Assembly: GCF_000298275.1 (NCBI RefSeq) | Contig: NW_006922148.1 | Span: 1,228,987 to 1,252,044, forward strand | DNA length: 23,058 nt | Source of the DNA: Orycteropus afer | Taxonomy: Eukaryota | Reading direction: 5' to 3' | Part shown: piece by piece, positions 1 to 21,489 of the stretch | Position numbering within the stretch: position 1 is the stretch's first letter | How the letters are laid out: each line of letters opens with the position of its first letter | The notes under the pieces: model-generated | The model's input: only the letters and a program-made list of their open reading frames with translations | Database searches by the model: none | Told to the model about the DNA's origin: nothing | Translations under genes and position numbers: made by a program

Positions 1-140
1 ACCAGAAGGCTGGCAGTTCAAACCCACCAGCCACTCCTCAGAAAGAAGGTTGGGCAATCTACTTCTGTAGTGATACTGCCTCAGAAACCCAAGGATGGGT
101 TGCTATGAGTTGGGTCCGACTCGACGGCACATAACAACAA
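1..140 (+). mobile_element. AfroSINE-type tRNA-derived SINE (copy A). It is 5'-truncated by the window edge and carries the 3' tail '...GACTCGACGGCACATAACAACAA'.
   Basis: Near-identical to the other copies in the window (e.g. 8559-8741). Conserved core 'CCAGAAGGCTGG.GTTCAAACCCACCAGCC...GGGCAATCTACTTC.GTAGTGATACTGCC...GCTATGAGT'. Confidence 0.85.
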
Positions 141-663
141 TATGATTTACAATTTTCTTTCCACGGCTAAACCAGTCCATTCTATCTTGCAATTGTCTTG
201 ATTTTTTCACCATTTAGAAGTTCTATAAGTGCATTACCCCCCACCCCTTTTTTGGTTTGTCGTTGTCTTCATTTGCAAATTTGTGGCTCTCTTCCCTGTT
301 TCCCATCTTTAAAGCTTATTTTACTTGGGATACTTTCATAACTGTGTTGATGTCTGGGTCATGTCATTATGTGTGTTAATGATCGGTTGTTGTTTGCTGT
401 TGTTGGTTCTCTGTCCAAAGGACACCCATTAGAATTTCTTGTAAGGTTGGTTTGGTTTTAATAAATTCCCTTAGTTTATGCTTATCTGGAAATGCCCTAC
501 TTTTACCATCATATTTGCAGGACAGTTTTGCTGCATATATAATTCATGGTTGAAAATTTTTACCTTCATGGTTTTTATATATAGCATCCCATTACCTTCT
601 TGCCTGCATGGTTTCTGCCCAGAAATCCAAGTTTAGTCTTATTACTTGCCCCTTGTAGGTAAC
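141..663 (-). mobile_element. LINE-1 / half-L1 (HAL1-like) fragment, paralog copy 1. It covers the ORF1 C-terminus to junction region and is a collinear paralog of 20700-21890 without the LTR and SINE insertions.
   Basis: Collinear block alignment with 20700-20729 + 21225-21267 + 21469-21890 by eye, e.g. 'TGTGTTAATG.TC..TTGTT..TTG.T.CTCTGTCCAA.GG...CCC.TTAG.AT.TCTT.TAAGGTTG.T.TGGTTTTAATAAAT.CC.T..TTT.TGCTTATCT..AAATG.CCTA.TTT.CC.CATCATATTTG'. The reverse-complement translation of the paralog matches the L1 ORF1p C-terminus. Confidence 0.6.
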
Positions 664-835
664 TGCCTAAGGCATTTGAATGCTAACCAGAAGGCTGGCG
701 GTTCAAACCCACCAGCCACTCCTCGGAAGGAAGATGGGGCAATCTACTTCCGTAGTGATACTGCCTTGGAAACCCAAGGACGGGTCGCTATGCGTCGGGT
801 CTGACTCGACGGCACCCAGCAACAACAGCAACAAC
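664..835 (+). mobile_element. AfroSINE-type SINE (copy B). It lacks ~20 nt of the 5' head and has a (CAA/CAG)n-like tail.
   Basis: Starts at 'TGCCTAAGGCATTTGAATGCTAACCAGAAGGCTGGCGGTTCAAACCCACCAGCC' and ends '...GACTCGACGGCACCCAGCAACAACAGCAACAAC'. Confidence 0.85.
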
Positions 836-1052
836 TCAGGTCCTAACACTTGTAAATATTCAAACTGTCTGTGCCATCAGGATAGCTGATAGTCTGCAGC
901 TCCGTTTGTGTCATTATTCACTGTTTTCATTCAGGTTTTTCTGCTAGTTGGTATTTAAAGTGGTTTTGTATGCTTCATTTCAATGCTCAGGTCTCCAGGA
1001 TTATCTTTTGTGTCTGTATCAACTGGTTTCTCTTTTTGTGTGTGTTGCATAG

Positions 1053-1579
1053 TGTGGTAGTTAAGTTTGTGTGTCAGCTTGGCTGGGCTTGGTTGAGTGG
1101 CTGGATGTAGAATTCCCCATGATGAGACTAGTAATCAACTCCATGGTGGAATCTACTGTGAGCAGCAGAGTAGCTGCCTTTGGGTCTGTGGTCTGCTTCC
1201 TATATATAAAGAAACAGCTTTGGGAATGGTTTCTCGCTTATAGAATGCTTCAACCCTCCATGTAGCTGTGTCGTTCTGCAGCCTGCCGTGTGGTTTGGTG
1301 ACATTGGAACTGTGCCTTTTTACTTGTCAACCTTGGGCTTGTTGGCCTCAGCAGCCAGCAGCTGTCTGAGTGTAGAAATGCTTCTAGCTCCAGTGGGCCT
1401 GGAGCAGGAGGCAGAGCTGAAGCCCAAGGCTGAGGGGCTTTCACACAGCCCCTAGAGGCTGGCACTTCGAACTCAGACTTCTAACTTCCCGAACTGTAAG
1501 AGAATAAATAAACTCATGTTTGTTAAGGCCATTTCATTTGTGGTATATTCTTGTCAAGTGGCACTAGGTAACCAGAACA
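1053..1579 (+). mobile_element. Solo MaLR-type LTR (ERVL-MaLR, MST/MLT-like) with TG...CA termini and a 5-bp TSD CATAG/TATAG.
   Basis: The 5' end 'TGTGGTAGTTAAGTTTGTGTGTCAGCTTGGCTGGGC' resembles MaLR LTR starts ('TGTGGCAGGTTAGAATTGTGTGTCAACTTGGCTAGGC', from memory). The 3' end has the MaLR-like architecture '...GAACTGTAAGAGAATAAATAAACTCATGTTTGTTAAGGCC...TGGTATATTCTTGTCAAG...AACCAGAACA'. The flanks are 'GCATAG|TGTGG' and 'AACA|TATAGGG'. Confidence 0.65.
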
Positions 1580-2860
1580 TATAGGGTCTGTGTAGCTTGT
1601 TTGTCTCTTCTTCCAGCTTACTGTATGTCACCTTGACTTTTTTTTTACAATGGTGGACTAATACAGTATTTACATTGACTTATTTCACTCACTGTAATGT
1701 CCTCCAAATTCATCCATGTTATGTGGTGATTTGCAGATTCTACATTATTCTTTAGGGTTGCATATTATTCCATTGTATGTATGTACCACAGTTTATCCAT
1801 TCCTCACTTGATAGACACTTGGGTTGTTTCCACCTCTTTGCTGTTGTGATTAGTCCTGTGGTAAATATGGGTGTGCATATATTTATTTGTGTCTTTTTTA
1901 CTTCTTTAGGATACATACTGAGTAATGGAATTGCTAGGTCAAATGGTATTTCTATTTCTAATTTTTTAAGGAATTGACATACTGATTCCAACAATGGTTG
2001 TATCATTTTATAGTCCCACCAGCAGTGTATGAAAATCTCAGTCTCTTCGCATCCTTGCCAGTATTTGTTATTTTCTTTCTTGTGAACTTTGCTATTAATG
2101 CTGGGATGAGATGATATCTCATGGTTGTTTTCATAGCATTTCTCTAATGGCTAATGATTGCAAACATTTCTTTGTGTGTTTGTTGCCTGCCTAAATATCT
2201 TTGGTGAAGTGTCTGGCTTCTGCCCATTTTTCCAACTGTATTGTCTCTTTGATGTTGAGGTGTTGGAGTTTTCTATAAATTTCAGAGATAAATCCCTTGT
2301 CAGGTACGTCATTGTCAGATATTTTTTCCCATTCTTTGTGTTCTCTTTTTACTCTTTTGGGGACGTTTTTTTGATGTACATAAGAACTTAAGTTTTATAA
2401 GGTCCCAATCATCTAGTTTATCTTCTGCTGTTTGTGCATTTTTGGTTATGCTTTGTAGTCTATATATGCCATAAATGAGGGCCCTGAAGATTGGCCCTGT
2501 TTTTTCTTTGATGAACTTTGTAGTTTCAGGTTTTAAATTTAAATCTTTGATTCATTTGGAGTTAGTTATTATGTGTGATGGGCGGTATCAATCTTCTTGC
2601 ATTTTTCTGCAAATGGATAACCAGTTTTGCTTTTTACCATTTGTGGGAGAGAGAGTATCTCTTCCCCATTTAATGGATTTCAGCCCTTTGTCAAAGATCA
2701 ACTGACCATAGGTGAATACATCTGTTTCTGGGTTCTCAATTCTATTCCATTGGTCTATGTGTCTGTTGTTGTACCAGGCTGTTTTGACAACGGTGGCTGT
2801 ATAGTAAGTTTTGTGATCTGGGAGTGTGATTCCTCCTACTTTGTTCCTCTTCTTCAGTAC

Positions 2861-3061
2861 AAAAAAAACCCAAAAAAAAACAAAAAACCAAACTCACTGC
2901 TGTTGAGTTGATTCTGACTCATAGTGACCTCTCCATAGGTCCCTGAGGTGGTATGGAAGTAGATTGCCCAGTCTTCCTTCTGAGGAGTGGCTGATGGGTT
3001 TGAACCGTCAGCCTTCTGGTTAGCAGTCAAATGCTTTAGACACTATGCCACCAGAGTTCCC
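2861..3061 (-). mobile_element. AfroSINE-type SINE (copy C) of the second tail subfamily (tail '...GACTCA..GGCAGTGAGTTTGGTTTTTT', with an A-run on the + strand at 2861-2885). It is nested in the L1 with the TSD TCTTCAGTA(C/G).
   Basis: The tRNA-like head 'GGGAACTCTGGTGGCATAGTGTCTAAAGCATTTGACTGCTAACCAGAAGGCTGACGGTTCAAACCCATCAGCC' is read on the minus strand. Flanks are 'CTTCTTCAGTAC|' and '|TTTTCTTCAGTAG'. Confidence 0.8.
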
Positions 3062-3436
3062 TTTTCTTCAGTAGTGCTTTGCTTATCTGGGGTCTCTTTC
3101 CTCTCCATTTAAAATTAGTGATTGACTTTTCCATGTCCTTAAAGAATTTTGATGGGATCTGGATTGGGATTGCATTGAATGTATAGATTGCTTTGGATAG
3201 TACTGACATTTTCACAATATTCACTCTTGCTATCCATGACCATGGTATGTTCTTCCATTTATGTACTCTCTTAGGGTTTCTTGAAGTCATGTTTTGTAGT
3301 TTTCTTTGAATGGGTCTTTTGTGTTCCTGGTTTGATTTATTCCCAACTATTTTATCTTTTTAGTAGGCATTGTAAATGGTATTGATTTCCTTTTCAGAGA
3401 CCTCTTTGCTGATGTAGAGGAATGCAACTGATTTTT

Positions 3437-3937
3437 TTTTTTAAATTTTTATTGTGATTTGGGTGAAAATTTCCAGAGCAAATTCATTTTCCATACAGCA
3501 GTTCACATACACTGTCTCATGACGTTGACTGCAATTTCACACAATGCAACAGGTCCCCTCTCACTTCCTCCCCATAGTTAGCTCTTTCCTGTTTCCTTCC
3601 CTCTCATGCACTCCTGTCCCCTGAGCTGTCTCCCTGTGCATACACAGCCCTCTATTCTCCCATGATTGATCTTTCCAAGGAGTGTATCTACCTAATGTAA
3701 ATGTTCAGCTCATGTGCCTGTCTTTTGTTTGGCTGGAAGCCACAGGAGTGTGTTTAGTTCTGGACCTGAAGGACATCTAGGGGCCATAGTCTAAGGGGTT
3801 CCATCAGGCTCTATCAGACCAGCAAACCTGGCCCCTGCCTTTTTTTTGTGTGTGTGGTTTTGAGTTTTGTTCCACATTGTTCTCTCACTCTATCCAGGAT
3901 CACCTATATAGATCCCCTTCCGAGTGGTTGACAGTGG
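3437..3937 (-). mobile_element. Polyadenylated retroposed insert of unknown identity (~500 bp). It has an AATAAA-like signal and an A-tail on the minus strand, and is flanked by a 16-bp TSD, AATGCAACTGATTTTT (3421-3436) and AATTCAACTAATTTTT (3938-3953), inside the L1.
   Basis: L1 antisense homology stops at 3436 and resumes at ~3938. The direct repeats match 14/16. The + strand begins with T11 then 'AAATTTTTATTG', so the minus-strand insert ends in 'CAATAAAAATTT' followed by A(n). Confidence 0.55.
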
Positions 3938-4077
3938 AATTCAACTAATTTTTGTATGTTGTTCTTGTATCCTGTCAGTATGCAAAATCTCACAATAAGT
4001 CCAGTAATTTTTTTGCTAAGTCTCTTGGGTTTTCTATATATTGGGTCATATTATCTGCAACTAGGGATATTTTTCCA

Positions 4078-5600
4078 TCTTCTTTTGATGCTTCTTGCAT
4101 TGTTCAATATTTTGCCCATAGAATCCTTCAGGATTGCAACTCAAGGCTTTAATATTTTCTTCTGGTCTTTCAGCTTGAGAAATGCCAAGTATATTCTTTC
4201 CTTTTGATTTTATAACTCCAGGTCTTTGGACATTTCATTATAATATTTTACTTTGTCTTCTTGTGGTGCCCATTGAAATCTTATGTTCAACTCTTTCACT
4301 TCATCTTTTTTCCATTTGCTTTAGCTACTCTTTGTTCCAGATCAAGTTTCAGAGTCTCTTCTAACATCCAGTTTGGTCTTTAATTCATTGCATGTCTTTT
4401 TAATGACCTTTTTGTTTCTTCATGTATGGTATCCTTGATGTCATCCAACAACTCCTGTGGCTTTGGTCATTAGTGTTGAGTGCATCAAATCTATAGTTCA
4501 GATAGTCTCTACGTTCAGGTAGGATATACTCAAAGTTGTACTTTGGCTCTTGTGGTTTTGTTTTAATATTCTTCAGCTTCAACTTCAGCTTGCATAGGAT
4601 CAATTGATGGTCTTTTCTGCAGTTTCCCTTGACCTTGTTCTGACTGATGATATTGAGCTTCTCCATTGTCTCTTTCCACAGATATTGTTGATATGATTCT
4701 TGTGTATTCCATCCAGTTATATCCACGTGCATTTTATATTGTTGAAAAGTGGTATCTGCAATAAGTAATTCATTAGTCTTGCAAAATTCTATCATGTGAT
4801 CTCCAGTATAGTTTTATATCGCCAACATCATATTTTCCAACAATTGATCCTCCTCCTTTGTTTCCAACTTTTGTGTTCTAATCACCAGTAATTATCAATA
4901 CATCTTGATTGAATGTTTGGTCAATTTCAGAGTTCGGAAGTTGGTACTTATCTTCAATTTTTTCATCTTTGGCTTTAGTGGTTGGTGAGTAAATTTGAAT
5001 AATAATTGTATTAACTGATTTTTCTTGTAGGCTGATGGATGTTGTCCTGTCATTGACACAATGTACTTTATGATAGATTATGAAATATTCTTTTTGACAA
5101 TGAATGTGATGCCATTCCTGTGCAGTTTTTCATTCCTGGCATAGTTGACCCTATGTTTGTATGATTCACATGGCTAGTGCCTGTCCATTTCACCTCACTA
5201 ATGCCTAGGATATTGATCTTTATGTGTTCCATTTCAGTTTTGATCACTTCCAGTTTTCTAAAATTCACGTTTTCTACATTCCATGACTCAGTTATTAATA
5301 GATGTTTGTAGCTATTTCTTCTCATTTTGAGTTGTCCCAGATCAGGAAGTGAAGATCTTGAAAGCTTTATTCTATCCACATCATTAAAGTCATCTCTACT
5401 TTGATAAGGAAGCTCTTACTCAGTTGTATTGTGAATACTTTGCAGCCTGAGGGGCTCATCTTCTGGTACTATATCTGGCAGTGTTCCATTGCTAGTTATA
5501 AAGGTTTCAGTAGCTTATTTTTTTCAGAGCTAAATCACTACTTCTGCTTGTTAGTATGTCTTAGTCTGGAAACTCTGCTGTAGTCTGCCCACTACAGGTG
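4078..5600 (-). mobile_element. RTE/BovB-type LINE, copy 3. It covers the 5' region (5'UTR, AP-endonuclease domain and the linker to the start of RT) and is degraded. It abuts the L1 at ~4078.
   Basis: The minus ORFs 5068..5379 ('VIKTEMEHIKINILGISEVKWTG') and 4400..4795 ('LLIADTTFQQYKMH...HQLILCKLKLKLKNIKTKPQEP') match the BovB endonuclease ('VVKQEMARVNIDILGISELKWTG', 'LVIANTLFQQHKRR...HELLIAKFRLKLKKVGK'). The nucleotide sequence is collinear with the reverse complement of RTE copy 2 (15440-17200). Confidence 0.8.
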
Positions 5601-6879
5601 ACCCTGCTGGTATTTGAAATACCAGTGGCATACTTTCCGGTATCACAGCAACATGCAAGTCAGCACAGTACAACAAACTGACAGATAAATGGTGGTGCAT
5701 ATTTGTATTTGGGAATATAAGTTATAAAATTTCTCCAAGGAATGAAAGTATGCTAAAATGGTATGGGAAATGGACAGACAAGTAGTGTGGTGGATGCTGC
5801 TGCAAGATCAAGTAAAGTAAAGACAGAATTATTGCTGAATTTAGCAATGAGATCATTGGTGATGTTGACCAATATCTTTTTTTGTGATTGACAGAGGTGC
5901 GAGCCTAATTAGGTTGAGTTTAAGAGTGAATGGAAGACAAGAGTTTTGAGACACAGGAGAAAATATGGGACAGTAGCAGAGAGGAAAGTGAGGTCAAGAA
6001 TGCTTTATTTTTCTTTTGAAGTGGGAGAAATAACAGCATGTGTATGTGCCAGTGGTAGTGCTCCATTGCAGGAGAGGAAAACTTCCCCATGAGAATGGGA
6101 ATTGCTAGAACTTCTTCCTCTTGTAGGCAAGAGGATGAGAACCAGTGCTCAGAAGCAGTGTCTGGCCTTGGCTGGGAGCTCACAGTTAGTTGGGACAGAA
6201 GGTATAGGTTATGGGGACATATGCAGGTAGGTGGCTACATTTGGTAGTATAGCTTGAAGAAATCTCAGTTTTCTAAAATTGAATTCTAAGATTTAACCTC
6301 ATCATTGCCTCCTAATCAATATTGAAGATTATGTTAAGCAACTCTAAAAATCTGTTAGGAAAATAATAACATCATGATTTTGATAAGCTTCATTGGGAAA
6401 TTAGGTTAATTTTAGTGATCCATTAAATTGGGGAAATGGGAGTAGGGTAGAGTGGGAAAGAGCATGTGATTTATGATATTTATTCCAGTTTGATAATAAC
6501 TGACCACCACTGTCTGGGCTGCTCTGTTCCATACCCATACCTCTGAGCTAGCTCAGGAGGATGTCATAAACATTGAGAAAACCTACATGTGGGCTGGTAG
6601 TCAATGTTTCATACCTTTGGAGGCATTTAGGAGCTGTAACAATAATTACAACTTCAATGAATCAGGCACTGAATTGAGTTTTTCACATGCAGTAACTCTG
6701 GGAGTTAAATGCTATTTTTACTCTACCTGTAAGTTGACAGTGACATTAAACAATATGATAGAGCATACTTTTGACCTCAAGTCATTTTGACTCTAGAGTT
6801 CTAGATCCTAATACTGTACCATAGTGCAACATGGTGTAAAACTTCCTGCCATTGAGTCAGTTCTGTAGGTGATATATAA

Positions 6880-7055
6880 CAGAGCATGGGGTTTGGAGTC
6901 AGAAAGACAGACAGGAGTCAGAGGAAAGACAGGAGTCAGAATCCTTGGTTTGTTCTTTTCTAGTGCTTTGACTTTGAGGAAGTTATTTAACTTCTTTGTG
7001 CCTCAGTTTCCAGATGTGCAAAATGGGAATAATCACCCATTGGTGTTGTGACTTT
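6880..7055 (+). mobile_element. MIR (ancient tRNA-derived SINE) fragment.
   Basis: The MIR core 'TGACTTTGAGGAAGTTATTTAACTTCTTTGTGCCTCAGTTTCCAGATGTGCAAAATGGGAATAAT' compares with the MIR consensus '...GACCTTGGGCAAGTTACTTAACCTCTCTGAGCCTCAGTTTCCTCATCTGTAAAATGGGGATAAT'. Confidence 0.7.
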
Positions 7056-8040
7056 TAGGTACCATGAATGCAATTAACTAGTAAATTTTTTGACATGTTG
7101 GAGATGCATAACAAATTATGAATACGTTACAAGAGGCATATGTCCTTTGAATTTTACAACTTGCCCCATATGATATTTCATTCCTGAAATGGCCTCTGCC
7201 ATGAGGAAGGTTGGCCCCAGAATAACTCATTTAGTAGAGAGTTTTTATTAATTTATGGTCAGACAGCTATCTTGTAGATTAATCTTGCATATCTGAGCAG
7301 AGGCTGAATAGAAAGGACCTCTCTGTGCTTGGCTCATGTATTTTAACTTTTCTTGGAATAAGTTTAATGTTTTTAGTTTATTATTTATATAATGATTTTT
7401 TCAAAATGTGGAAAATTAGATGTCAACATCTTATATTAGTTTATGTTCTAAATTCTAATAAAAATACTTCTATCATCATTACCTAAAATTACTTATTTAT
7501 TTGAGTGCCCAGTTATACATCATGAATATATAAGGAAAATCAAGCTGACAGAGCCTGGAACTCACATGCAAAGACAAACTTGTTAAGCAGAGACAGTAGG
7601 ATATCTACAGAGTAATATGAAGACGCTTACCTAAAATACGATTCAATGATAATCATACTCATGAAATACATGCCAAGAAAATATGTGCCAGAGGAGTTTG
7701 GTAGAGTTGTGTGAAACTGAGAGAGTTTTCTGTGCAACCAAAGAGTGAGCAAGATATCTTAGTAGCGCTTTGATCAGGACAAACAGAGCCCTGTGCCATT
7801 TCCAGTCTTGGTTTCTCCCCTTCTAGACTCTCATGGGGCCACACAGGTAGCTCAGAAACTTTCGGACTTGTACCTGTGGGGTTGTTTTGGGTAAGTCCCG
7901 ACCCTAGTTCTTGGGAAGTAATCTGTCAAGAACTCTCCCCCTAGCCATTGAAGCATTTGTTTGCAGGATTTTAAGAGACTGGATCTCCAAAAGGGTGCCA
8001 GCCTGCTGACTTGGGGTGCCTCGAATTGTTTATAAAGGCT

Positions 8041-8230
8041 TTGTTGTTGTTGTTGTTATGTGCCGTCGAGTCAGCCCCGACTCATAGCGACCCCTCCTTG
8101 AGTTTCCGAGGCATTATCACTACGGAAGTAGGATTGCCCAACCTTCCTTCCAAGGAGTGGCTGGTGGGTTTGAACCGCCAGCCTTCTGGTTAGCAGTCAA
8201 GTGCCTTAGGCACTATGCTACCAGAGCTCC
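8041..8230 (-). mobile_element. AfroSINE-type SINE (copy D), full length, with a 12-bp TSD TTT(A/G)TAAAGGCT.
   Basis: The sequence is '(TTG)n TTATGTGCCGTCGAGTCAGCCCCGACTCATAGCGACC...CACTATGCTACCAGAGCTCC'. Flanks are 'GTTTATAAAGGCT|' and '|TTTGTAAAGGCT'. Confidence 0.9.
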
Positions 8231-8558
8231 TTTGTAAAGGCTAGAGCCCCTAGAGCCCCTCAACACTTCCCTGGTGCCCTATACACCATAGCTTTTAGCA
8301 AATCCAATTGTGGACAACATTTTATAATAGGCCCCACCCCCACCCCATTTTGGTGTCTTTGGTGACTATAAATTGTTAAATATTTTTCCTTATTAGTACC
8401 ACTGTTTATTAAAAAATACCAAATATTTAAAAATTCCTGCTTTTTCTTGGTAAGGGAGTGATGTGATAAAACTATCCTTTTACAAAGATTAATAGGAAAG
8501 AAGACAGTAAGATAGAGTGGGATGGAAAAGGTTTTATTCAGGAGCTATCTAGGCAGGA

Positions 8559-8741
8559 GGGAGCTCTGGTAGCATAGTGCCTAAGGCACTTGACTGCTAA
8601 CCAGAAGGCTGGTGGTTCAAACCCACCAGCCACTCCTCGGAAGGAAGATGGGGCAATCTACTTCTGTAGTGATACTGCCTCGGAAACCCAAGGAGGGGTC
8701 TCTATGAGTTGGGTCCGACTTGACGGCACACAACAACAACA
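8559..8741 (+). mobile_element. AfroSINE-type SINE (copy E), full length. It is in inverted orientation relative to copy D, 330 bp away.
   Basis: 'GGGAGCTCTGGTAGCATAGTGCCTAAGGCACTTGACTGCTAACCAGAAGGCTGGTGGTTCAAACCCACCAGCCACTCC...GGTCTCTATGAGTTGGGTCCGACTTGACGGCACACAACAACAAC'. Confidence 0.9.
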
Positions 8742-9185
8742 TTTAGGTGGGAAGAATTGAAGACTTAGATTAGAAAAGCCACAAGAGAAGTAGGTAAAAC
8801 CAAAAAGACATCTCCAAGGAAGAGTACCAAGACATCATAGATTGAATATAAAGAGTATTCTGGAATAATATGACGCCCACATGCTATAAGAAGGCCTGAA
8901 AAAGGGATTTTTTCCTGGCCAGCTTAATAGTAGCTACAATGCTAACTAAGTTACACTGCTACCAAGTGACTCATCTTCAGTTAGGTGTGTATGAACTACC
9001 TAAACATGGAGACAGTGCATTTTCTCCTGTGACATGGACTCTGCATTGTTGTAGTATCTCTTCTAATATCTGAAGCCAGAGTTGGGAACTTGAGGGGCAT
9101 GATAAAAAGTCAAGGAATTTAAAACAAATGTGCATAAGAATTTTATTAGTAGATACATTATGAAGTATGGATTTTTCTTCTTCAG

Positions 9186-9317
9186 GTCATCGTGTTTCAA
9201 ACATACACAAATCAAAGTCATGTACCCATTGAGGCAAAATATATCTTTCCTCTGGATGATAAGGCTGCTGTGTGTGGCTTTGAAGCTTTCATCAATGACA
9301 AGCATATAGTAGGACAG
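9186..9317 (+). CDS. Internal coding exon (132 bp, phase 0) of a VIT-domain protein gene (VWA5A/ITIH/PARP4 family). It encodes VIVFQTYTNQSHVPIEAKYIFPLDDKAAVCGFEAFINDKHIVGQ.
   Basis: The acceptor is 'TTTTTCTTCTTCAG|GTC' and the donor is 'GGACAG|GTAAAG'. It is an open frame in unique (non-repeat) sequence. The motif 'FPLDDKAAVCGFEAFINDKHIVG' matches the VIT-domain consensus (human VWA5A 'FPMDEDSAVYSFEALVDGKKIVA', ITIH4 '...FSMIIDGMTYPGIIKEK', both from memory). Confidence 0.75.
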
Positions 9318-10056
9318 GTAAAGGAAGAAAATATATTGTGACTTCACTTTGTTTTTCCGTTTACCTAAAACTTCGTTATCTGAGTCTCCATAGCAGTGAG
9401 GTTGAGCCACAACCTAGTTGTAAAGCAAAGGTATTTTTGTACTTACACAATTAGTCTCCAGTCAGATATCCTCCCTGATTACCTCTTTATATCCCTGTTC
9501 ATCCAGGCTTTGTTGGTCAGTGTCTGGCAAATTTTATGCCTAGGCAATTCAGAGAAGAATGACTTCAATATCAAAAGTTTAAGAGGTACATTGGATAACT
9601 GGTGAAGCCCTTATTTACTTTTGCAAAAACTGATTCTCTTGAACCTGCTGTAAAGTTTAAACTGAAGTGAATTTAGAAAAATTATACCAAAAGAAATAAG
9701 TTGATTTATTCTTTGTTTATTCTAAACATTAGCCCCTAATTGTAATAACAATCTGTATTTTGTTAGATTTAAGATAAAATAAACTTAATTTAGTATTTTT
9801 TGTTCAAAATAAAGTCTCATTCAAACTTTTTTCCACTTTATAAATTCAAATATTTTGTTTCTAGTTTTAAGAGAATTTTCTTTAATTGTCCTTTTGGGTT
9901 TAAATTATTGATGATCACTTTCCATAAGCTTCCAGTTTGCTTAGACCCAGTATTAGTTTTTTGTTTTTGCCTAGGTTTCAGTAAACATGATGAAGTTTTC
10001 CTAATTAAAGTCTGAAGTCACCATATTATGACGGATGTAAGAACTATTTTTTCCAG

Positions 10057-10143
10057 GTTAAAGAGAAGGAAGAAGCCCATCGAGAATACCGGGAAGCCAT
10101 TAGTCAAGGCCATGGTGCTTACTTGATGGATCAGGATGCACCG
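10057..10143 (+). CDS. The next coding exon (87 bp, in frame) of the same VIT-domain gene. It encodes VKEKEEAHREYREAISQGHGAYLMDQDAP.
   Basis: The acceptor is 'TATTTTTTCCAG|GTT' and the donor is 'GCACCG|GTATGA'. It continues exon 9186-9317 in frame. The hallmark 'VKEK.EA...Y..AISQGH.A.L' matches VWA5A 'LQDKMKARTNYEKAISQGHQAFL' and ITIH 'IKEKAEAQAQYSAAVAKGKSAGL' (from memory). Confidence 0.75.
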
Positions 10144-11280
10144 GTATGACTTGATGTTCATCTGCTAGCTTAGTACATTTATTAGAAATGAAAAAGGGGT
10201 TGAAAATGATTTGAAATATGAAATTCATACTATAAATCAAGATAACTTATAGTATTTAGGGCCTTGGAGTTTCATTTACTTTTGGCAGGGGGAGGGCAAG
10301 CTGGTCAGACCCATGTGACTTGTCTAAATAAAGAAGGAAATGGTATAAATATTACCACACAAATAAGCACTATTTCTTAATTGGTAACTGAGTTTCCCAG
10401 AAATAACAACAAAAAGGAAACATTTGGGTTGTTAATTATCACCTTTTAATAAAAGAGTGTAATGTATTTACAGGATAAATTTACCTAGAATTAAGCTCAC
10501 CTAAAATTTTACTCACTTTTCACCAAATAATAACTTAGGAACACATTGGTGCAGGGTATTGACATAGGGCCAGATTCTTTCCTTTCTTCTTAATAGCTTT
10601 AAGCTCAGAAATAATACCACTCATCTGTTCTTTCTTCCTTAATCATTTCTAATACTAACCCATCTCTTGAACTCTTTATCCTGTCTATTCCTAGTCCTTG
10701 CTTCATCAGCTATTTCCTTTAGTGTTTCCAACTTCTCTCTTACTACTTGCTTTTTATCCCTGACCTCTCTAGCCTGAAAAATAAAGCAAGGCCTTCCTTT
10801 ACCTCAAAACAAACCCATTTCAACACAAAACTTACCCATTTTCTTATTAATTTACTTCTCAGTGTGTTGCAGTGACTCCCCACATCAGGCTACTGAAAGG
10901 CTCCCAGTAAGGTATCTTGTTTCCAAAGTGTCAAAACAACAGTTTTTCTGTGACATTCTAGATGACCCTACTGCAGTTTTGACTCTGTTGACTAGCCCTT
11001 TCTTCAGTTCAGCAGTTGAACTAACATTAATACCTATACCAGATGCTAGTGACTTAGAAATAATATGTAATCCCACATGGAACTCACAGTGCAGTACGGA
11101 AAGCAAACTAAACAAAGAGTGTGATATGTGACAGAGTATTAAAGACATGTACTGAATGTAATAGTGGCACAGTAAGGCACCACCAGACAAGTGAGATGTA
11201 ATAGTCATAGGACCCTTCCTAGAGAACAAGATACTTGAGCAGTCTTAAAAAATGAATAGGAACTTCTTCGGTAAACTAAG

Positions 11281-11528
11281 AGGTGGACTCTGGTTGGTGC
11301 AAGTGGTTAAGTCCTCAACTACTAATGGAAAGGTTGGCAATTGGAACCCACTCAGAGGCACCTTGGAAGACAGTCCTGGTGATCAGTTTCTGAAAGGTCA
11401 CAGCCTTGAAAAACAAATAAATAAATAAACAAATTAAAAAAAAAAAAAAAAAACCGATGGAGCAGGTCTATTTTGTACATATGAGGTCGCTTTGAGTCAG
11501 CATCAACTTGATGGCAACTCAACAACAA
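11281..11528 (+). mobile_element. tRNA-derived SINE of a distinct subfamily (copy K). It has a divergent tRNA-like head, an internal 42-bp A-rich tract (11404-11445) and the conserved 3' block 'GGTCGCTTTGAGTCAGCATCAACTTGATGGCAACTCAACAACAA'.
   Basis: The head 'GGTGGACTCTGGTTGGTGCAAGTGGTTAAG...GGTTGGCAATTGGAACCCACTCAGAGGCACCTTGGAAGACAGTCCTGG' is homologous in architecture to other AfroSINE/CORE-RTE-type SINEs. The 3' block is shared with the other SINE copies and with RTE tails. Confidence 0.65.
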
Positions 11529-12383
11529 ATTCACAGACGGTAAGTAACCTGAAATAGCACATTTCATTGGGAGTGTCAGTATTTTGTCCTGTCTGGAGTG
11601 ATATGGATAAGATTTGTCTTTGAGAAAGAACACTCAGATGGCAATGAGAAGGTTGGAGTGGCCTATGAGTTGTCAGGGAGACTAAGTGACTCTTATGGTA
11701 ATCTAGGCAAGAGGTATAATGAGGGGCTGAACTAAAATAGTGACAGTGGGAATGGAGAAGATGCAACTTGTGAAAGATCTTAGAGAGGTAGAATGTACAG
11801 AATTGGTTAAAGATGGGAGGATGTGGGCGTGCCAAGAGAATGGAGTATGAATGGCTCTTGGTCAAGTCTGGCTTGGATGACTAGAGGCTGTTTGCCATCA
11901 ATGAAGTCATGGATTTGAGAAGAGTAGAGTCTTTGTGAATATGGGGATACTGCAAGTGGGAGGAGAAAGTGAGTTTGAGAAATTGCTGGGACATCTTGTG
12001 CATGTGTCCCTGAGGTAGCTGGATATGTATTTGGGAGTTCAGGGGTGAGGTATGTACTGGAGGTGGAAATCTGTATATCATCGTTGGAGTCTCTGAGATG
12101 GCATTGTGACAGGGGCTAGGTATTATAACAGAGATTAGGTAACAGAGATTGGATGTAGTCCTGAAACACCTAGCTTTAAGTTTGGGTGGTAGAAGGGGAA
12201 AGGAAAAAGTATCTGAACTGCCATTATCTAGGGAAAAGTTCCCTAACACAATGTTATCATTTCCTAAGTCTAATTGAGTGTGAAATTATATACTTGTTTT
12301 TCTATCAAGATTCCTTGAGTTAAGGCACAGTAATGAGTCCCAAGTCTAAATTACTAAATCAAATTTATATTGCCCCACTTTTG

Positions 12384-12409
12384 ATATATATATATATATA
12401 TATATATAA
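12384..12409. repeat. (TA)n microsatellite (~12 units).
   Basis: 'GATATATATATATATATATATATATAAAATC' read directly. Confidence 0.95.
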
Positions 12410-13284
12410 AATCATTCATTAATCTGACTTTTTGAAATCAGGTGAAAGGAACAAGGTAGAATATTTATCAAATCTGTAATTGAAAATGAAAATACAAAAA
12501 ATAAAAAAACAAATTAAGTACTTTTTGTAAAACTGATCTCATTACCTTCCCCTCCAAACTTTCTTTCTGTGTTCCTTGTCTCTGTCATCCTTCATGTCTC
12601 TTTTTCCTCTCCTCCATTTCCTATTAAATTAGCCATCTGAATTTTCATGTTTATTACATCCATGGAATGTGTCCTATGCCACAACCTATTCTATAGCCAT
12701 TAAATAACTTTAGACCTATTGGTTATTCCTTTGACTCATTAATGCGGAGTAGTAGGCTTCCAAGTTCTTCAGTCCTATCCTGTGTTACTACTTTCTTCCA
12801 TGTCATATCTTAATAAGCCTGAGTTATTTGTGTTTCCTGAAAATACAATGACACTCCATTTGTTTGCTTAATTTTTTTAAATATCATTTTAAAATTTTTA
12901 GCTCCAGTATCCTTTCATCTAAGAGAAAACTAAAGCTTTTCCTGCCATTCCTCAGGAAAGTTAGGTGCCTTTGTTTTATGCTTCCAATACAAACTTGTAT
13001 GTGTCTGTGTCATAACTCTTACACTGTTTAGGAAGATAGAGGTTTAGCTTGTAATCCCCAGTACTTAAGCAGGGAAGTAACAGAAAAGGATAGATAAAAG
13101 AGTTAGTGGGAAAATAAAGAGAAAACTATGGTGCCAAAACCAAGACTGGAGAGAGTGCTTCAGGTAGGGTTACTTATAGCCTCCTAATTGCCAGATTAAA
13201 TAGCAGTGTTTCTGAGACCAAATTTTTTTGAGAAGTTGACCATTTTCTTCTTCCTAAAACATCTAGACTGACTTATTTATCACT

Positions 13285-13471
13285 GTTGTTGTTGTTGTTA
13301 TGTGCTGTTCAGTTGGACCCGACTCATAGTGACCCCTCCTTGGGTTTCTGAGGCAGTATCACTATGGAAGTAGATCGCCCAGCCAACCTTCCGAGGAGTG
13401 GCTTGGGGGGTTTGAACCGTCAGCCTTCTGGTTAGTAGTCAAGTGCCTTAGGCACTATGCTACCAGAGCTC
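13285..13471 (-). mobile_element. AfroSINE-type SINE (copy F), full length. It is inverted relative to copy G, ~70 bp away.
   Basis: '(TGT)n TATGTGCTGTTCAGTTGGACCCGACTCATAGTGACCCCTCC...CACTATGCTACCAGAGCTC'. Confidence 0.85.
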
Positions 13472-13542
13472 TTACCCTTACACTATTAAATTCAATCTGA
13501 CAGTCTCCGTCTTTTAATTAGGTTGTTTTTGTTTAGACCATA

Positions 13543-13654
13543 GGAGCACTGGTAGCGTAGTGCCTAAGGCACATGACTGCTAATCACACAAATAAGTTCA
13601 AACCCACTAGCCACTCCTTGGAAGGAAGGTTGGGCAATCTACTTCCATAGTGAT
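13543..13654 (+). mobile_element. AfroSINE-type SINE (copy G/H), 5' segment. The SINE is split by an RTE insertion and its 3' segment lies at 14983-15056.
   Basis: 'GGAGCACTGGTAGCGTAGTGCCTAAGGCACATGACTGC...GGGCAATCTACTTCCATAGTGAT' stops where the antisense RTE 3' end begins. The SINE resumes at 14983 with 'GATACTGCCTCGGAAACCCAAGGAGGGGTCGCTATGAGTCGGGTCCGACTCGATGGCACATAATAACAACAAC'. Confidence 0.85.
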
Positions 13655-14982
13655 GTTGTTTTTGTTGTTAGGTGCCATTGAGTCATTTCCGACTCATAGC
13701 GACCCCATGCACAGTAGACTGAAACACTGCCTGATCCCATGCCAGCTCCATGGTCCCTGCTATACTTGAGCCCATCATCACAGCCACTGTGTCAATCCAT
13801 CTCGTTGAAGGCCTCCCCCTCTTTCGTTTATCCTCCATCCTACCAAGCATGACATCCTTCTCCAAGGAATGGTTCCTTCTGACAACATGACCAAAATAGG
13901 TGAGACGAAGTCTGGCCTTTCTCGCTTCCAAGGAGCATTTCGGCTGCACTTCCTCCAGGACAGATGTGTTAGTTCTTTTAACAGTCCATGGTACTTACAG
14001 CATTCTTTGCCAGCACCACAACTCAAAAGCATCAACTCTTCTTCGGTCTTCCTTATTCATTGTCCAGCTCTCACATGCATACGAGGTGATTTTACATATC
14101 ATGGCTTCTGTCAGGTGCATGTTAATCCTCAAGGAGACATCCTTGCTCCTCAGCACTTGAAACAGTTCCTTTGCAATTGACTTTCCCAGTGCCACACGTC
14201 ATCTAATCTCCTGACTGCTGCTTCCATTGGCATCGATTGTAGAACCAAGCAATGTGAATTCTTTGACAACCTCAGTCTTCTCTCCATTTATTATGATGCT
14301 GCTTATTGGTCCAGTTGTGAGGATTTTTGTTTTCTTTATATTAAGATGTAATCCATACTGCAGACTGTGTTCTTCAACCTTAATCAGTAAGTGCCTCAAG
14401 TCATCCTCACTTTCAGCAAGCAAAGTTGTATCGTGTGCATATCTCAGGTTGTTAATGATTCCTCCTCCAATCCTGATGCCACGTTTTCCTTCATATAGTC
14501 CAGCTTCTCGGTTTATTTGCTCAGAATATAGATTGAATAAGTGTGGGGAAAGGATACAACCCTGACGCACTCCCTTCTTGATTTTAAACCATGTAGTGTC
14601 CCCTTGTTCCATTCGAACGACAGCCTCCTGGTGAAAGTAGGTGAAGTTCTTCATGAGTACAATCAAGTGTTCAGGAATTCCATTCTTCTCAATGTTATCC
14701 ATAATTTGTCATGATCCACACAATCAAATGCCTTTGCATAGTCAATAAAACACAAGTAAACATCTTTCTGGTATTCTTTGCCTTGAGCCAAGATCCATCT
14801 GACATCAGCTATGATATCCCTTGTTCCATGTCCTCTTCTGAATCCATCTTCCACCTCTGGAAGTTCTCTGTCAATATACTTCTGCAACCGTTTTTGAATT
14901 ATCTTCAGTAAGATCTTACTTGCATGAGATATTAGTGATATTGTTTTATAATTTCCACGATCTGTGGGAATTATATCCATAA
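13655..14982 (-). mobile_element. RTE/BovB-type LINE, copy 1. It is the 3'-terminal 1.3 kb (RT C-terminal half to the 3' end), 5'-truncated, and is inserted into AfroSINE G/H with the TSD CCATAGTGAT (13645-13654) / CCATAATGAT (14976-14985).
   Basis: Minus ORFs include 'ISLISHASKILLKIIQKRLQKYIDRELPEVEDGFRRGHGTRDIIADVRWILAQGKEYQKDVYLCFIDYAKAFDCVDHDKLW' and 'GVRQGCILSPHLFNLYSEQINREAG...RYAHDTTLLAESEDDL'. These match BovB RT 'IALISHASKVMLKILQARLQQYVNRELPDVQAGFRKGRGTRDQIANIRWII...YFCFIDYAKAFDCVDHNKLW' and 'GVRQGCILSPCLFNLYAEYIMRNAG...RYADDTTLMAESEEEL'. The 3' terminus read on the minus strand is 'GGTCGCTATGAGTCGGAAATGACTCAATGGCACCTAACAACAA'. Confidence 0.9.
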
Positions 14983-15056
14983 TGATACTGCCTCGGAAAC
15001 CCAAGGAGGGGTCGCTATGAGTCGGGTCCGACTCGATGGCACATAATAACAACAAC
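14983..15056 (+). mobile_element. AfroSINE copy G/H, 3' segment (the continuation of 13543-13654).
   Basis: See 13543-13654. The joined parts reconstitute a complete SINE. Confidence 0.85.
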
Positions 15057-15224
15057 ATGTTTAGACCATTTACAGTTAATGTAATTACTGATATGATCTG
15101 ATTAATAGTTACCTTCTTGCTAATGGTTTTCTATTTTTCTTATTATTTATTATTTTTTTGGTTTCCTTTTCTTGTATTGAACTTTTTTTTCAATGATTCC
15201 ATTTTATCTCCATTATTGGCATAT

Positions 15225-15345
15225 TTATTACATCTCTTAAAAATCTTTGGTGGTTGGTCTATAGCTGCCCTTTACAATATGGTAGCCACTAGACATATGT
15301 GAATATTTAAATTTAATTAAATAAAATTAAATATTTACATATGGC
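15225..15345. mobile_element. MER-type non-autonomous DNA-transposon (hAT MITE-like) fragment with an AT-rich imperfect palindrome. The family assignment (MER5/MER30-like) is from memory and tentative.
   Basis: 'CAATATGGTAGCCACTAGACATATGTGAATATTTAAATTTAATTAAATAAAATTAAATATTTACATATGGCTATTGGCTA' resembles the human repeat motif 'TGGTAGCCACTAGCCACATGTGGCTATTTAAATTTAAATTAATTAAAATTAAAT'. It may instead be part of the RTE 5'UTR. Confidence 0.3.
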
Positions 15346-15885
15346 TATTGGCTAACTTATTGGATAGCAAACCTTTTGTTTTATCATTTCAGTGGTCTAT
15401 TGGTCAACACTGCTTTAGGGTTTACTATATACAACTTTTGAGCCCCTCACATTGGAAGGAACTCAAAATACAACTGGGAGAAAGCTGTGTCCTCAAAGTA
15501 GAATTGACCTTAATGATATGGGTGGAATAAAAGCTTTTGGGACCTACATTTGCTGATGAGGCACCAACAAAATGGAAAGAAACAGCTGTAAACATTCATT
15601 AATAATCAGAATATGGAATGTACAAAGGATGAATGTAGGGAAATTGGAAGTTTTCAGTAATTAAATGGAATGCATAAAGATAGTACCCCTAGGCATTAGG
15701 GAGCTGAAATGGATTGGTATTAGCCATTTTGAATCAGACAGTTGTATGGTGTGCTATGCTGGGAATGCCAATTTGAAGAGAAATGGTGTCACACTCATCA
15801 TCAAAAAGAACATTTCAATATCTATCCTGAAGTACAATACTGTCATTTATAGAATAATACCCATATGGCTATAAAGAAGACCAGT

Positions 15886-16069
15886 TAAACCAAACTCACT
15901 GCCATTGAGTGGATTCTGACTCATAGGGATCCCCTTTGGCTTTCCAAGGGGGTAAATATTTATGGAAGTAGATTGCCCAGTCTTCCTTCTGCAGAGTGGT
16001 GGGTGGGTTTGAACTGCCAGCCTTCCGGTTAGCAGTCAAATGCCTTAGGCACTATGCCACTAGAGATCC
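15886..16069 (-). mobile_element. AfroSINE-type SINE (copy I) of the second tail subfamily ('AAACCAAACTCACTGCCATTGAGTGGATTCTGACTCATAG' on the + strand). It is nested in RTE copy 2.
   Basis: The head on the minus strand is 'GGATCTCTAGTGGCATAGTGCCTAAGGCATTTGACTGCTAACCGGAAGGCTGGCAGTTCAAACCCACCCACC'. The RTE reading frame resumes immediately afterwards ('NTTITRIYAPTTKAKDE' matches BovB 'ITVIQVYAPTSNAEEA'). Confidence 0.85.
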
Positions 16070-16937
16070 TAATACTACTATTACTCGAATCTATGCACCA
16101 ACCACTAAAGCCAAAGATGAATAAATTGAAGATATTTACCAACTTCTGCAGTCTGTAATCAGCCAAACATGCAATCAAGATTGCTTATGATTGGAATGCA
16201 AAAGGTAGAAATGAAGAATTAACAATAGTTGGACAATGTGGCCTTGGTGATAGAAATGACTTGGGAGATCAGCATTTTGCAAGACCAATGACTTATTCAT
16301 TGCTAATATGTTTCTTCGGCAACATAAATGGGGCTATATATGTGTACCTTGCCAGATGGAATACACAGAAATCAGATTGATTACCTCTGTGGAAAGAGGA
16401 GATGTAGAAGCTCAGTATCTCCTGTGAAAGCAAGACCAGGAGCTGATTGTGGAACAGACCACCAACTGCTCATATGCAGGTTCAACTTGAAGCTGAAAAA
16501 AATTAAAACTAAGTCCATGAGAGCCAAAACATGACCTTGATTATATCTCATCTGAATTTAGAAACCATCTGAAGAATAGATTTGATGCATTGAACATCAG
16601 TGACCAAAACCCAGACGAATTGTAGAATGACATCAAGATGACAACAAAGAAACAGTCATTAAAAAGGCAAGAGAGGAAGAAAAGACCAAAATGGATGTCT
16701 GAAGACTGTCTGAAACTTGCTCTTGAATGCAGGATAGCTAAAGCAAGTGGAGGAAATGACAAGGTAAAAGAACTGAATATTTTGAAGGGTACCTTGAGAA
16801 GACAACATAAAGTACTGTAATGAAATGTGCAAAGACCTGGAGTTAGAAAACCCAAAAGGAAGAACACAGTCAGCATTTATCAATCTGAAAGAACTGAAGA
16901 AAACATGCAAGCCTTGAGTTGCAATATTGAAGGATTC

Positions 16938-17108
16938 TGTGGGCAAATATTGGGAGCTCTGGTGGCATAGTGCCTAAGGCATGTGACTGCTATCTGGAAG
17001 CCTGGTGGTTCAAATCCATCAGCCACTCCTCAGCAGGAACATTGGGCAATCTACTTCCATAGAGATACTGCCTTGGAAACCCAAAGAGGGGTTGCTATGA
17101 GTCAGATC
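16938..17108 (+). mobile_element. AfroSINE-type SINE (copy J), nested in RTE copy 2 with a perfect 11-bp TSD TGGGCAAATAT. It lacks the usual 3' tail.
   Basis: Flanks are 'CTGTGGGCAAATATTG|GGAGCTCTGGTGGCATAGTGCC...' and '...GTTGCTATGAGTCAGATCTGA|TGGGCAAATATGAATGATG'. RTE copy 3 shows the empty-site sequence 'TATGGGCAAAATATTGAACAATG' (reverse complement of 4105-4127). Confidence 0.85.
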
Positions 17109-18754
17109 TGATGGGCAAATATGAATGATGCAGGAAACCTCAAAAGAGGATGGAATACACAGAGTCACTGTAAACAGAAAGAGTTGGTTGATGTTCATTT
17201 GTTTCAGAAGGTTGCATATGATCAAGAACCACTAGTATTTAAGGAAGAAGTCAAAGCTGCACTAAAGGAAGTGGCAAAGAGCAAGGCTCCAGGAGTTGAT
17301 GGAATACCCATGTTCCAACAAACGGATGCTGTGCTGGAGGCACTTGGCCACTTATGCCAAGAAATTTGGAAGACAACTATCTGGCCAACTGACTGGAGGA
17401 GACCAATGTTTGTGCTCATTCCAAAGAAAGGTGATTCAACAGAATATGGGAATTATTGAATATCTTTAATATCACATGCAAGATTTTGCTGAGAATAATT
17501 TAAAAATAGTTGCTCCAGTTTATTGACAGGGAACTTCCAGAAATTTAAGCTGGATTCAGAAGAGGATGTGGAATGAGGGATATTATTGCTGATGTGAGAT
17601 GGATCTTGGCTGAAAGCAAGCAATACCAGAAAGATGTTTACCTGTTGACTATGCAAAGACACTTGATTGTGTGGCTCGTAATGAATTATGGATAAAATTG
17701 AAAATAATGGGAATTCCAGAACACTTAACTGTGCTCATGAGGAACCTGTACATAGACCAGGAGGCTGTTGTTTGAACAGAACAAGGGGATACTGCATGGT
17801 TTTAAATCAGTAAGGGTGTGCATCAAGATTGTATCCTTTCCCCATACTTAGTCAATCTGTATGCTGAGTAAATAGTTTGAGAAACTGGACTATATGAAAA
17901 AGAATGCAGCATCAGGGTTGGAGGAAAACTCATTAACAGCCTGCAATATGCAGACAACACAACCATGTTTGCTGAAAGTAAAGATGACTTGAAGCACTTA
18001 CTGATGAAGATTGTAGACTACAGCCTTCAGTATGGATTACACCCCAACATAAAGTAAACAAACATTTTTACAACTCGACCAACAAGCAACATCATAATAA
18101 ATTGAGAAAAGATTGGAGTTGTCAGAGATTTTATTTTTCTTGGATCTACAATCAACACTCAAGGAAACAGCAGTCAAGAAACCAGACATTGAATTGCACT
18201 GAGCAAATCTGCTGCGAAAGACCTCTTTAAAGTGTTGAGAGAGGCAAAGATGTCATTTTAAAGACTAAGGTGCACCTGATGGAAGCCATGGTGTTTTCTA
18301 TCACCTCAAATGCATGTGAAAGCTGGAAAATGAATACGAAAGTCCAGAGAAGAGTTGATGCCTTTGAATTATGGTGTTTGTGAAGAATACTGAAAATACC
18401 ATGAACTGCTAGAGGAACAAACCAATCTGTCCTGGAAGAAGTGCTCCTTAGAGGTGAGAATGGCCAGACTTCGTCTCACCTACTTTGGTCATTTTGTCAG
18501 AAGGAACCATTCCCTGGAGAAGGCTATAATACTTGGTAAAGTACTGGGTGGGGTAAGTGGTCAGTGACAAAGGGGAAGACCCTCAGTGAGATGGACTGAC
18601 ACAGTGCCTATAAGGATGCTCTGATGTGTAGCAAAGATTGTGAGCATGGAGCATGACTGGGCAGTGTTATGTTCTCTGGTACACAGGGCTCATGTGAGTT
18701 GGAGGTGACTTGATGGCACCTAACAACAACAATATGAATATTGTAGCATCCAAA

Positions 18755-18861
18755 AACAAAAGCCAAACTCTGCCTCATTTTTTCTACTCCAGAGTAGCTT
18801 GTGGGAGAACTGCTAACCTTTTGGTTAATAGCTAAATGCTTTTACCACTATGCCATTGGGG
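18755..18861 (-). mobile_element. Truncated tRNA-derived SINE (copy O) with a second-subfamily-like tail.
   Basis: The minus strand reads 'CCCCAATGGCATAGTGGTAAAAGCATTTAGCTATTAACCAAAAGGTTAGCAGTTCTCCCACAAGCTACTCTGGAGTAGAAAAAATGAGGCAGAGTTTGGCTTTTG'. Confidence 0.6.
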
Positions 18862-19254
18862 TGTGTAAAATATATCCAGCCTTTTTTTTCTGCCGTATAT
18901 GATAAGGACATTGCCTTTTTATACAGTACTTAGCCATTTACAGAAAAACTACTCTGACTTGGCAGCCACTGGTTGAGCTAGTGCTGAGTGTCATGGGAGT
19001 CAGGAGGCTGTCTTGGAGCATTGCACAGGAAAAAGCCCTTGTGTGGGGACAGCTGCTGGGCCACAATACCCAGTCAGGCCAGAGTTCAGCTTTAGGGGCC
19101 ACCTTCTTCAGCCTCCTGTAAAAGTCACCCCCCCCCCAACTGGTGAATGACCCCAGGGCTCCCTTTTAGTACTAACAATGCTTTGTTTTGTAGGTTCTAT
19201 TACCATGTCCTGAGGAAGAATTTAGTAGATTATAACTCAAGTACTTCATTAATA

Positions 19255-19451
19255 GGATCTCTGGTAGTGTAGTGCCTGAGACATTTGACTGCTAACCAGA
19301 AGGCTAGGGGTTCAAACCCACCAGACACTCCTTGAGAGGAATGTCAGGCAATCTACTTCGTAGTGATACCGCCTCGGAAGCCCAGGGAGGGGTCTCTATG
19401 AGTTAGATCCGACTCGATGGAAGTGAGTTTGTTGTTTGTTTTAGTTTATTA
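19255..19451 (+). mobile_element. AfroSINE-type SINE (copy L) with the second-subfamily tail ('...GACTCGATGGAAGTGAGTTTGTTGTTTGTTTTAGTTTATT').
   Basis: 'GGATCTCTGGTAGTGTAGTGCCTGAGACATTTGACTGCTAACCAGAAGGCTAGGGGTTCAAACCCACCAGACACTCC...GGTCTCTATGAGTTAGATCCGACTCGATGGAAGTGAGTTTG'. Confidence 0.8.
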
Positions 19452-19453
19452 AT

Positions 19454-19547
19454 TGTTGTTGTTATGTGCCATCGAGTTGAACCCGACTCATAGCAACCCC
19501 TCCTTGGGTTTCTGAGGCAGTATCACGACAGAAGTACATTGCCCCAT
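19454..19547 (-). mobile_element. AfroSINE 3' half (copy M), 5'-truncated. It abuts copy L tail to tail in inverted orientation.
   Basis: 'TTGTTGTTGTTATGTGCCATCGAGTTGAACCCGACTCATAGCAACCCCTCCTTGGGTTTCTGAGGCAGTATCACGACAGAAGTACATTGCCCCAT'. Confidence 0.8.
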
Positions 19548-20729
19548 TAGTTCGTTACTATGAGGGGTTAATGTGCATCAAATGGATGTGATAATATACA
19601 TTTAAATGCATTTTATTGAAATATAATTTATGTACACTGAAATACACAGAATTAAAGTGACATGGGTCAGTGCTTTTTTTTTTTTTTTTGCAATGTTCTC
19701 TCCTTTGCCCTCCCACACCTGGCAACCAACAAAGAAAGTTTCCCTCCATATATAAACCTTTCCTTGACCCCCCACAACAATGAACTAAAACTATATTTGT
19801 CCTTCTGTGATTGACTTATTTTACTCAGAATAATATCCTCCAAGTTCATCCATGTTATGCATGTTTTTGCAGACTCTACATTATTGTTTAGTGTTGCATA
19901 GCATTGTATGTACCATAGTTTGGTCATCCATTCTTACATTGATGGGCATATAGGTTGTTTCCATCTTTTTGTTATTGTGAATAGTGCTGCAATGAACATG
20001 GGTGTGTATATATCTGTTCCTGTCCTGGCTCTCATCCCTCTAGGATATATCCCAGTAGTGGGATTGTTGGGTCAAATGTTATCTCCTATTCCAGATTTCT
20101 AAGGAATTGCTATACTGCTTTCCACAGTGGTTGTATCACTTCACAGTCCCATCAGCAGTGTATGAGAGTCCCAATCTCTCCACATCCCTGCCAGCATTTG
20201 AACTTTGCCATCAGTGCTGGGGTGCTATGGAATCTCATTGTTGTTTTGATTTGCATCTCTCTGATGGCCAGTGATCGTGAGTATCTCTTCATGTATTTGC
20301 TAGCCACCTGAATATCCTCCTTGCTGAAGTATCTATTCATGTCTTCTGCCCATTTTTCAATTGGATTTTTAATTCCTTTGCTGTCGAGGCACTGGAGTTT
20401 TCTATAAACCTTAGAGATAAGTCCCTTGGCAGATAAATAATTATCAGCAAATATGGATTTGTTGCTGTCATTTTTGTTACGTGCTTTTTTGTGGTATTGA
20501 TTTCTTTATTCCATATAATTTTCTATGCTGAGCTCATTTTGTTTATGAATTGTGTTATCATTTCCTTTGTTGCTATTATTTTAGTATTTGCTAAATATTT
20601 GTGCTGGTCCTCTTTTTTATTTTGATGTGGAGGTGTATCATTTTTCTTTGAGGTTACCCTGTGCTTTATAGTTTTCTTCCCAAGTTCAGAAAAGTCCATT
20701 CTATCTGGTAGTTGTCTTGACTTCCCTAG

Positions 20730-21224
20730 TGTGTTAGACTGGGTTCTCTGGAGAAACAAAACCAGTAAAGCTTACATATATAGAGAAAAAGAAAGTTATC
20801 TTAGCAAAATGGCTGACACACTTATAGAAGCTGGCAAGTCCAAAGTTCTTGGATCAAATGTCAAGCTTTTCCCGACTCATGCAGCTGCAGAGGCTTTGGC
20901 GCTCAAGGTTGGCAGGCAGTATGCTGGCCGTTGACTCTAGCGAATGACGAATTCAAGATCTCCAGGCTGAGTGGTGGGTTGTTCACTCACGGACAGTTGT
21001 AAGCAGCACAACAGAATCCCGATCCACAGAAGAATGTCTCTTTTCCCAGAGTGTCCATAAATATACTGGAAGCAGGCCACACCCCTAGGGAAACTCCCTT
21101 TCAATGGATTGGCTGCCCAAAACATACATGTCTGATCCCATCATTGGAGAAACCCACATCACAATTGCTTAAACCACACAGAATTGTGCTCCAGGCAAGT
21201 TGACCCACAGCTCCAACTATCACA
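20730..21224 (-). mobile_element. Solo MaLR-type LTR (MST/MLT-like) inserted in the half-L1, with TG...CA termini and a ~5-bp TSD CCTAG/CCTAC. The site is empty in paralog copy 1.
   Basis: The + strand starts 'TGTGTTAGACTGGGTTCTCTGGAGAAACAAAACCAGTAAAGCTTACATATATAGAG...GGCAAGTCCAAAG' (the reverse complement of the MaLR 3' end '...TTGGACTTGCC...TATATAT...GGTTCTGTTTCTCTGGAGAACCCTGACTAATACA', from memory). It ends '...GGCAAGTTGACCCACAGCTCCAACTATCACA' (the reverse complement of the MaLR 5' 'TGTGATAGTTGGAGCTGTGGGTCAACTTGCC'). Confidence 0.7.
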
Positions 21225-21278
21225 CCTACCATCTAGATGTTCTGTAATGACACAGATTTTTTCCCCTTTTTGGCTTGT

Positions 21279-21468: not shown

Positions 21469-21489
21469 TTTTGGCTTGTAGTTGTCCTC

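Follow-up and report, generated by a model that had tools for sequence, protein, structure and literature searches.

Two consecutive exons, probably of PARP4, encode the centre of a VIT domain in a retrotransposon-filled stretch of the Orycteropus afer genome

To which gene do two short open exons belong when the DNA on either side of them is intron filled with retrotransposons? The stretch analysed here, hereafter the window, comprises 23,058 nucleotides of Orycteropus afer DNA and contains two such exons, hereafter exon A and exon B. The first-pass annotation placed them in a VIT-domain gene and leaned towards VWA5A or a paralogue without a name; PARP4 was listed among its candidates but not favoured. 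We arrive at a different gene. With a probability that we put at about 0.93, the window is a stretch of the mammalian PARP4 gene on the + strand, with two consecutive mid-gene exons and the remainder intron. The coordinates of all features are collected in Table 1.

Table 1. Features of the window, in window coordinates.
Feature	Position	Strand	Remarks
Upstream PARP4 intron, 3' part	1-9165	+	L1/RTE/SINE debris; no PARP4 or host match; preceding exon outside the window
Exon A acceptor: polypyrimidine tract and AG (tggatttttcttcttcAG)	9166-9185	+	AG at the same position in L001 and L003; interspecies similarity starts here
PARP4 exon A	9186-9317	+	132 nt, phase 0-0, 44 aa; human PARP4 residues 639-682, VIT domain
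Intron between exons A and B	9318-10056	+	739 nt; donor GTAAAG, acceptor ttttttccAG
PARP4 exon B	10057-10143	+	87 nt, phase 0-0, 29 aa; human PARP4 residues 683-711, VIT domain
Exon B donor, GTATGA	10144-10149	+	GT at the matching position in L003 (gtaaga)
Downstream PARP4 intron, 5' part	10150-23058	+	RTE/L1/SINE insertions; no PARP4 or host domain; next exon outside the window
SINE copies	1-140, 664-827, 2956-3062, 8048-8230, 8558-8745, 13290-13471, 13543-13654	both orientations	self-BLAST
SINE copies, continued	14980-15054, 15919-16069, 16952-17102, 19255-19414, 19450-19547, 21285-21469	both orientations
RTE/BovB-type LINE fragments	13841-14942 (-), 17459-18538 (+), 4105-5458 (-), 15439-16952 (+)	- and +	decayed
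RVT_1	14238-14654	-	Pfam, E = 8e-26
Two decayed L1 elements	250-664, 1674-2067, 19810-20200, 21469-22122	-	antisense to PARP4
L1 ORF1 domains (RBD, dsRBD)	21907-22122 and 21712-21825	-	Pfam
L1 ORF1 dsRBD, weak	430-543	-	Pfam

Exon A is a stop-free run of 44 codons that translates to VIVFQTYTNQSHVPIEAKYIFPLDDKAAVCGFEAFINDKHIVGQ, and exon B is a stop-free run of 29 codons that translates to VKEKEEAHREYREAISQGHGAYLMDQDAP. Translation reproduces exactly the coordinates, lengths and joined 73-aa peptide first described, and the polypyrimidine-AG acceptors and the GTAAAG and GTATGA donors are likewise in place. With a slash marking each boundary, exon A reads tggatttttcttcttcAG/GTC at its acceptor and CAG/GTAAAG at its donor, and exon B reads aactattttttccAG/GTT and CCG/GTATGA. 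All four splice sites are canonical and both reading frames are intact. Since 132 and 87 nt are each divisible by three, each exon is of phase 0-0 and the two share a reading frame. Coding lies on the + strand, in keeping with the left-to-right transcription proposed earlier.

The first codons of the intron that follows exon A (positions 9318-9329, GTAAAGGAAGAA) read on as VKEE, which resembles VKEKEE at the start of exon B. For this reason phmmer over-extended exon A by four residues. Mimicry of this kind can misdirect exon-boundary calls that are based solely on homology.

The joined peptide identifies both the domain and the gene. It matches the Pfam VIT profile (PF08487) at 89.2 bits (cutoff 26.5, E = 2.7e-25) over profile positions 18-88 of 111, and the related profile VIT_2 at 45.6 bits (cutoff 23, E = 6.5e-12). 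The peptide had been read as the conserved centre of a VIT domain, with a VIT-domain match named as the test of that reading; the match is there, and the reading holds. Exons A and B encode core strands of the VIT beta-sandwich together with the conserved K-E-K..A...Y..A helix.

To name the gene, we compared the peptide with all PDB chain sequences, a set that includes neither VWA5A nor VWA5B. The best match is human PARP4 (11jf_P, 9bw6, 9bw7), at 131.9 bits and E = 3.8e-38. Peptide residues 1-73 align without a gap to human PARP4 residues 639-711, with 63 of 73 positions identical (86%), and this human segment occupies the same place in the Pfam VIT profile as the window peptide. Just one other protein, ITIH4, matched, with a score of 19.4 bits (E = 0.014). 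Given 86% identity to human PARP4 and a match to ITIH4 at just that E-value, we assign the gene to PARP4 (vPARP). Seventy-three residues, held by the first-pass annotation to be too few to name a gene, are enough here. At such a level of identity between placental orders, a closer paralogue is out of the question. Gapless colinearity across 9317/10057 also gives independent support to the predicted splice junction, which is probably the one used in RNA. Ten substitutions separate the window from human PARP4 (window residue first: Q10K, D38G, Q44E, V45I, H52Q, R53Q, R56L, I59V, S60T and D69S).

The exons might instead come from another VIT-vWA gene, such as VWA5A, VWA5B1/2 or an ITIH gene. The motifs that first suggested the domain, FP.D...A.V..FEA and AISQGH.A.L, occur across the family, and Pfam alone does not discriminate among its members. 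ITIH heavy chains and VWA5A share with the window peptide the VIT fold, the FP.D and FEA motifs and a K.K..A...Y..A...G helix. These proteins are nevertheless paralogues and far more divergent, as the bit scores of ITIH4 and PARP4 make plain, and the identity to VWA5A estimated by the earlier reader was ~50%, against the gapless 86% to PARP4. We regard an origin in one of these genes as very improbable, and read the exons as PARP4.

Comparison with other mammals bears on whether the exon boundaries are real and whether the exons are maintained. A search of 5.8 billion proteins returned just short, exon-sized pieces encoded by eukaryotic DNA of public assemblies, and no full-length PARP4 among its matches; the PDB sequence set served as the PARP4 reference. 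In two mammalian ORF fragments from this search (P0066 and P0064), similarity stops precisely at the exon A boundaries (..LLQ/VIVF.. and ..HIVGE/V..). Orthologous loci were available as Logan/ENA contigs of other mammals (L001-L006). Exon A is present in all of these, and exon B is also present in L003-L005, 715 nt downstream. The AG and GT positions in the orthologous contigs are identical to those of the window. PARP4 loci of other mammals thus share the exon boundaries seen here and have an intron of similar length (715 nt, against 739 nt in the window).

The pattern of substitution separates exon from intron. Between the window and L003, identity is 83% in the exons and, in the intron, 68% over ungapped columns or 60% over all columns. 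In the DNA alignment, interspecies similarity begins at the pyrimidine tract and ends a few bases past the donor. Differences in the two exons fall 7/3/28 across the three codon positions, so 28 of 38 are at the third, and they comprise 28 synonymous and 10 non-synonymous changes. The resulting dN/dS of 0.048 is approximate, since synonymous sites are close to saturated (pS 0.6-0.7); at about 0.05, the ratio places both exons under purifying selection. At the protein level, identity between the window and the orthologous loci is 91-95% for exon A and 83% for exon B. Exon nucleotide identity of ~83% with near-saturated synonymous sites points to a deep split within placental mammals.

These data also bear on whether the open frames and splice-like signals could have arisen by chance in intron or repeat sequence. 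AT-rich DNA often contains short ORFs, and nothing further speaks for such an origin. The E-values of 1e-25 to 1e-38, the absence of any repeat overlap, the confinement of interspecies conservation to the exons and the bias of substitutions towards third codon positions all run against it, and its probability is negligible.

A harder case to distinguish is an unprocessed PARP4 duplicate or pseudogene, that is, a segmental copy that has retained its introns and is not the functional orthologue. Human carries partial PARP4 pseudogene copies. Just 219 coding nucleotides are visible, with the other exons beyond the window, and over such a length a duplicate would look alike; a recent duplicate would also keep a low dN/dS against distant species. 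Set against this are intact frames, four of four canonical splice sites, conservative changes and no decay, and PARP4 is, as a rule, single-copy in mammals. We consider a duplicate unlikely, and infer from the sequence that this copy of PARP4 is probably the expressed orthologue.

Both exons look constitutive, and once spliced they would supply 73 residues of the central VIT beta-sandwich. Skipping is conceivable, as each exon is symmetrical, beginning and ending in phase 0. There is a slim chance that the exons are alternatively skipped, giving VIT-disrupted isoforms, or that the lineage holds a second, intron-containing PARP4 copy; nothing argues for either.

More distant relatives show a different gene structure in this region. 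In a set of non-mammalian PARP4 fragments on large contigs (P0003-P0013 and P0049), the upstream VIT segment and the equivalents of both exons lie in a single uninterrupted ORF. In another non-mammalian fragment, P0119, there is a break before VCGFEAF. Set side by side, the break and the uninterrupted frames indicate that PARP4 intron positions in this region vary between animal lineages.

Does the window hold any further part of the gene? All six frames were split into stop-free segments, and + strand segments of at least 22 aa were compared with the PDB, a length below which an exon would escape. Among these segments there was no PARP4 match beyond exons A and B, and nothing else was significant. 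Two PDB matches of + strand segments, to AbiQ (E = 0.83) and to a designed coiled coil (E = 0.18), were dismissed as noise. A tblastn search with non-mammalian PARP4 fragments that reach ~40 aa upstream, and so include the upstream part of the VIT domain, found no further exon in the window. Regular-expression searches of the window for motifs of the neighbouring exons (DVF..VGN and PL.SV.V) gave nothing credible. The next VIT exon, which the first-pass annotation expected nearby and marked by DVF..VGN, is therefore not inside the window by either tblastn or motif search.

Pfam was run on segments of at least 40 aa from both strands. It matched VIT on the + strand, and RVT_1 and L1 ORF1 domains on the - strand. 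A GRHL1_C candidate at 5813-5899 (-) scored 18.9 bits where 27 is required, and no single stretch passed; we judged it to be chance. Searches of the window for tRNAs (ARAGORN) and Rfam families gave no matches. The earlier claim that exons A and B are the only host coding signal is upheld by the PDB, tblastn, motif and Pfam searches, and since no other such signal appears on either strand, the remainder of the window is intron. The exons for the BRCT, PARP catalytic, vWA and C-terminal MVP-interaction regions lie outside these 23 kb.

That intronic remainder is dense in mobile elements. By self-BLAST, 37% of the window matches other parts of it, and the exons sit in its sole long repeat-free stretch (8746-13283), in agreement with their first description as unique sequence between repeats. 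SINE copies surround this stretch, at 8048-8230 and 8558-8745 on one side and 13290-13471 on the other.

The most numerous element is a (CAA)n-tailed, tRNA-derived SINE of ~185 bp, present as about 13 copies or fragments in both orientations. Measured against the copy at 8558-8745, taken as reference, identities are 81-92%; the consensus is GGAGCTCTGGTAGCATAGTGCCTAAGGC...GCTGCTAACCAGAAGGCTGGCGGTTCAAACCCACCAGCC...GCTATGAGTCGGGTCTGACTCGACGGCACATAACAACAACA. Their tRNA-like heads are too decayed for detection by ARAGORN or Rfam. We take the element to resemble AfroSINE; literature searches for sequence strings with AfroSINE motifs found no printed consensus. Tails of (CAA)n have been reported for elephant AFROSINE2 and also for a horse SINE (PMC6007223). 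The pairing of an RTE element with a (CAA)n-tailed tRNA SINE fits the elephant-type AfroSINE2 families, but horse has a similar pair (PMC6007223). The SINE and RTE content is compatible with an afrotherian origin, which is plausible.

LINE remains make up the other repeats. The RTE/BovB-type fragments, which point in opposite directions, share 73-78% identity with one another, and a + strand RTE copy is broken by the SINE insertions at 15919-16069 and 16952-17102. The + strand is T-rich at 1-5 kb and 20-23 kb, with an AT skew of -0.2 to -0.33 over the L1 regions. This is the pattern expected of L1 pieces lying antisense within an intron.

What would the two exons contribute to the protein? PARP4 is the vault poly(ADP-ribose) polymerase (vPARP), a vault-associated ADP-ribosyltransferase. 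Its N-terminal 575 residues are PARP1-like, with BRCT, WGR, HD and ART domains, and its C-terminal domain docks on the major vault protein (PMC10450202, PMC12280208). Between these, an ITIH-like central region combines VIT, its first part, with vWA in a tightly packed, single rigid module that presumably serves protein-protein or cargo interactions within the vault (PMC10450202, PMC12280208). By homology, exons A and B would have a structural role within this VIT-vWA interaction module.

Together, these results make exons A and B an ordinary piece of a well-known mammalian gene, and the biology that they represent is already known. The lean towards VWA5A is corrected to PARP4, a correction from which no new biology follows. 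Its value is one of annotation: the window gains the name PARP4, a strand and a reading phase, and the other 96% of its length is accounted for as retrotransposon-filled intron.
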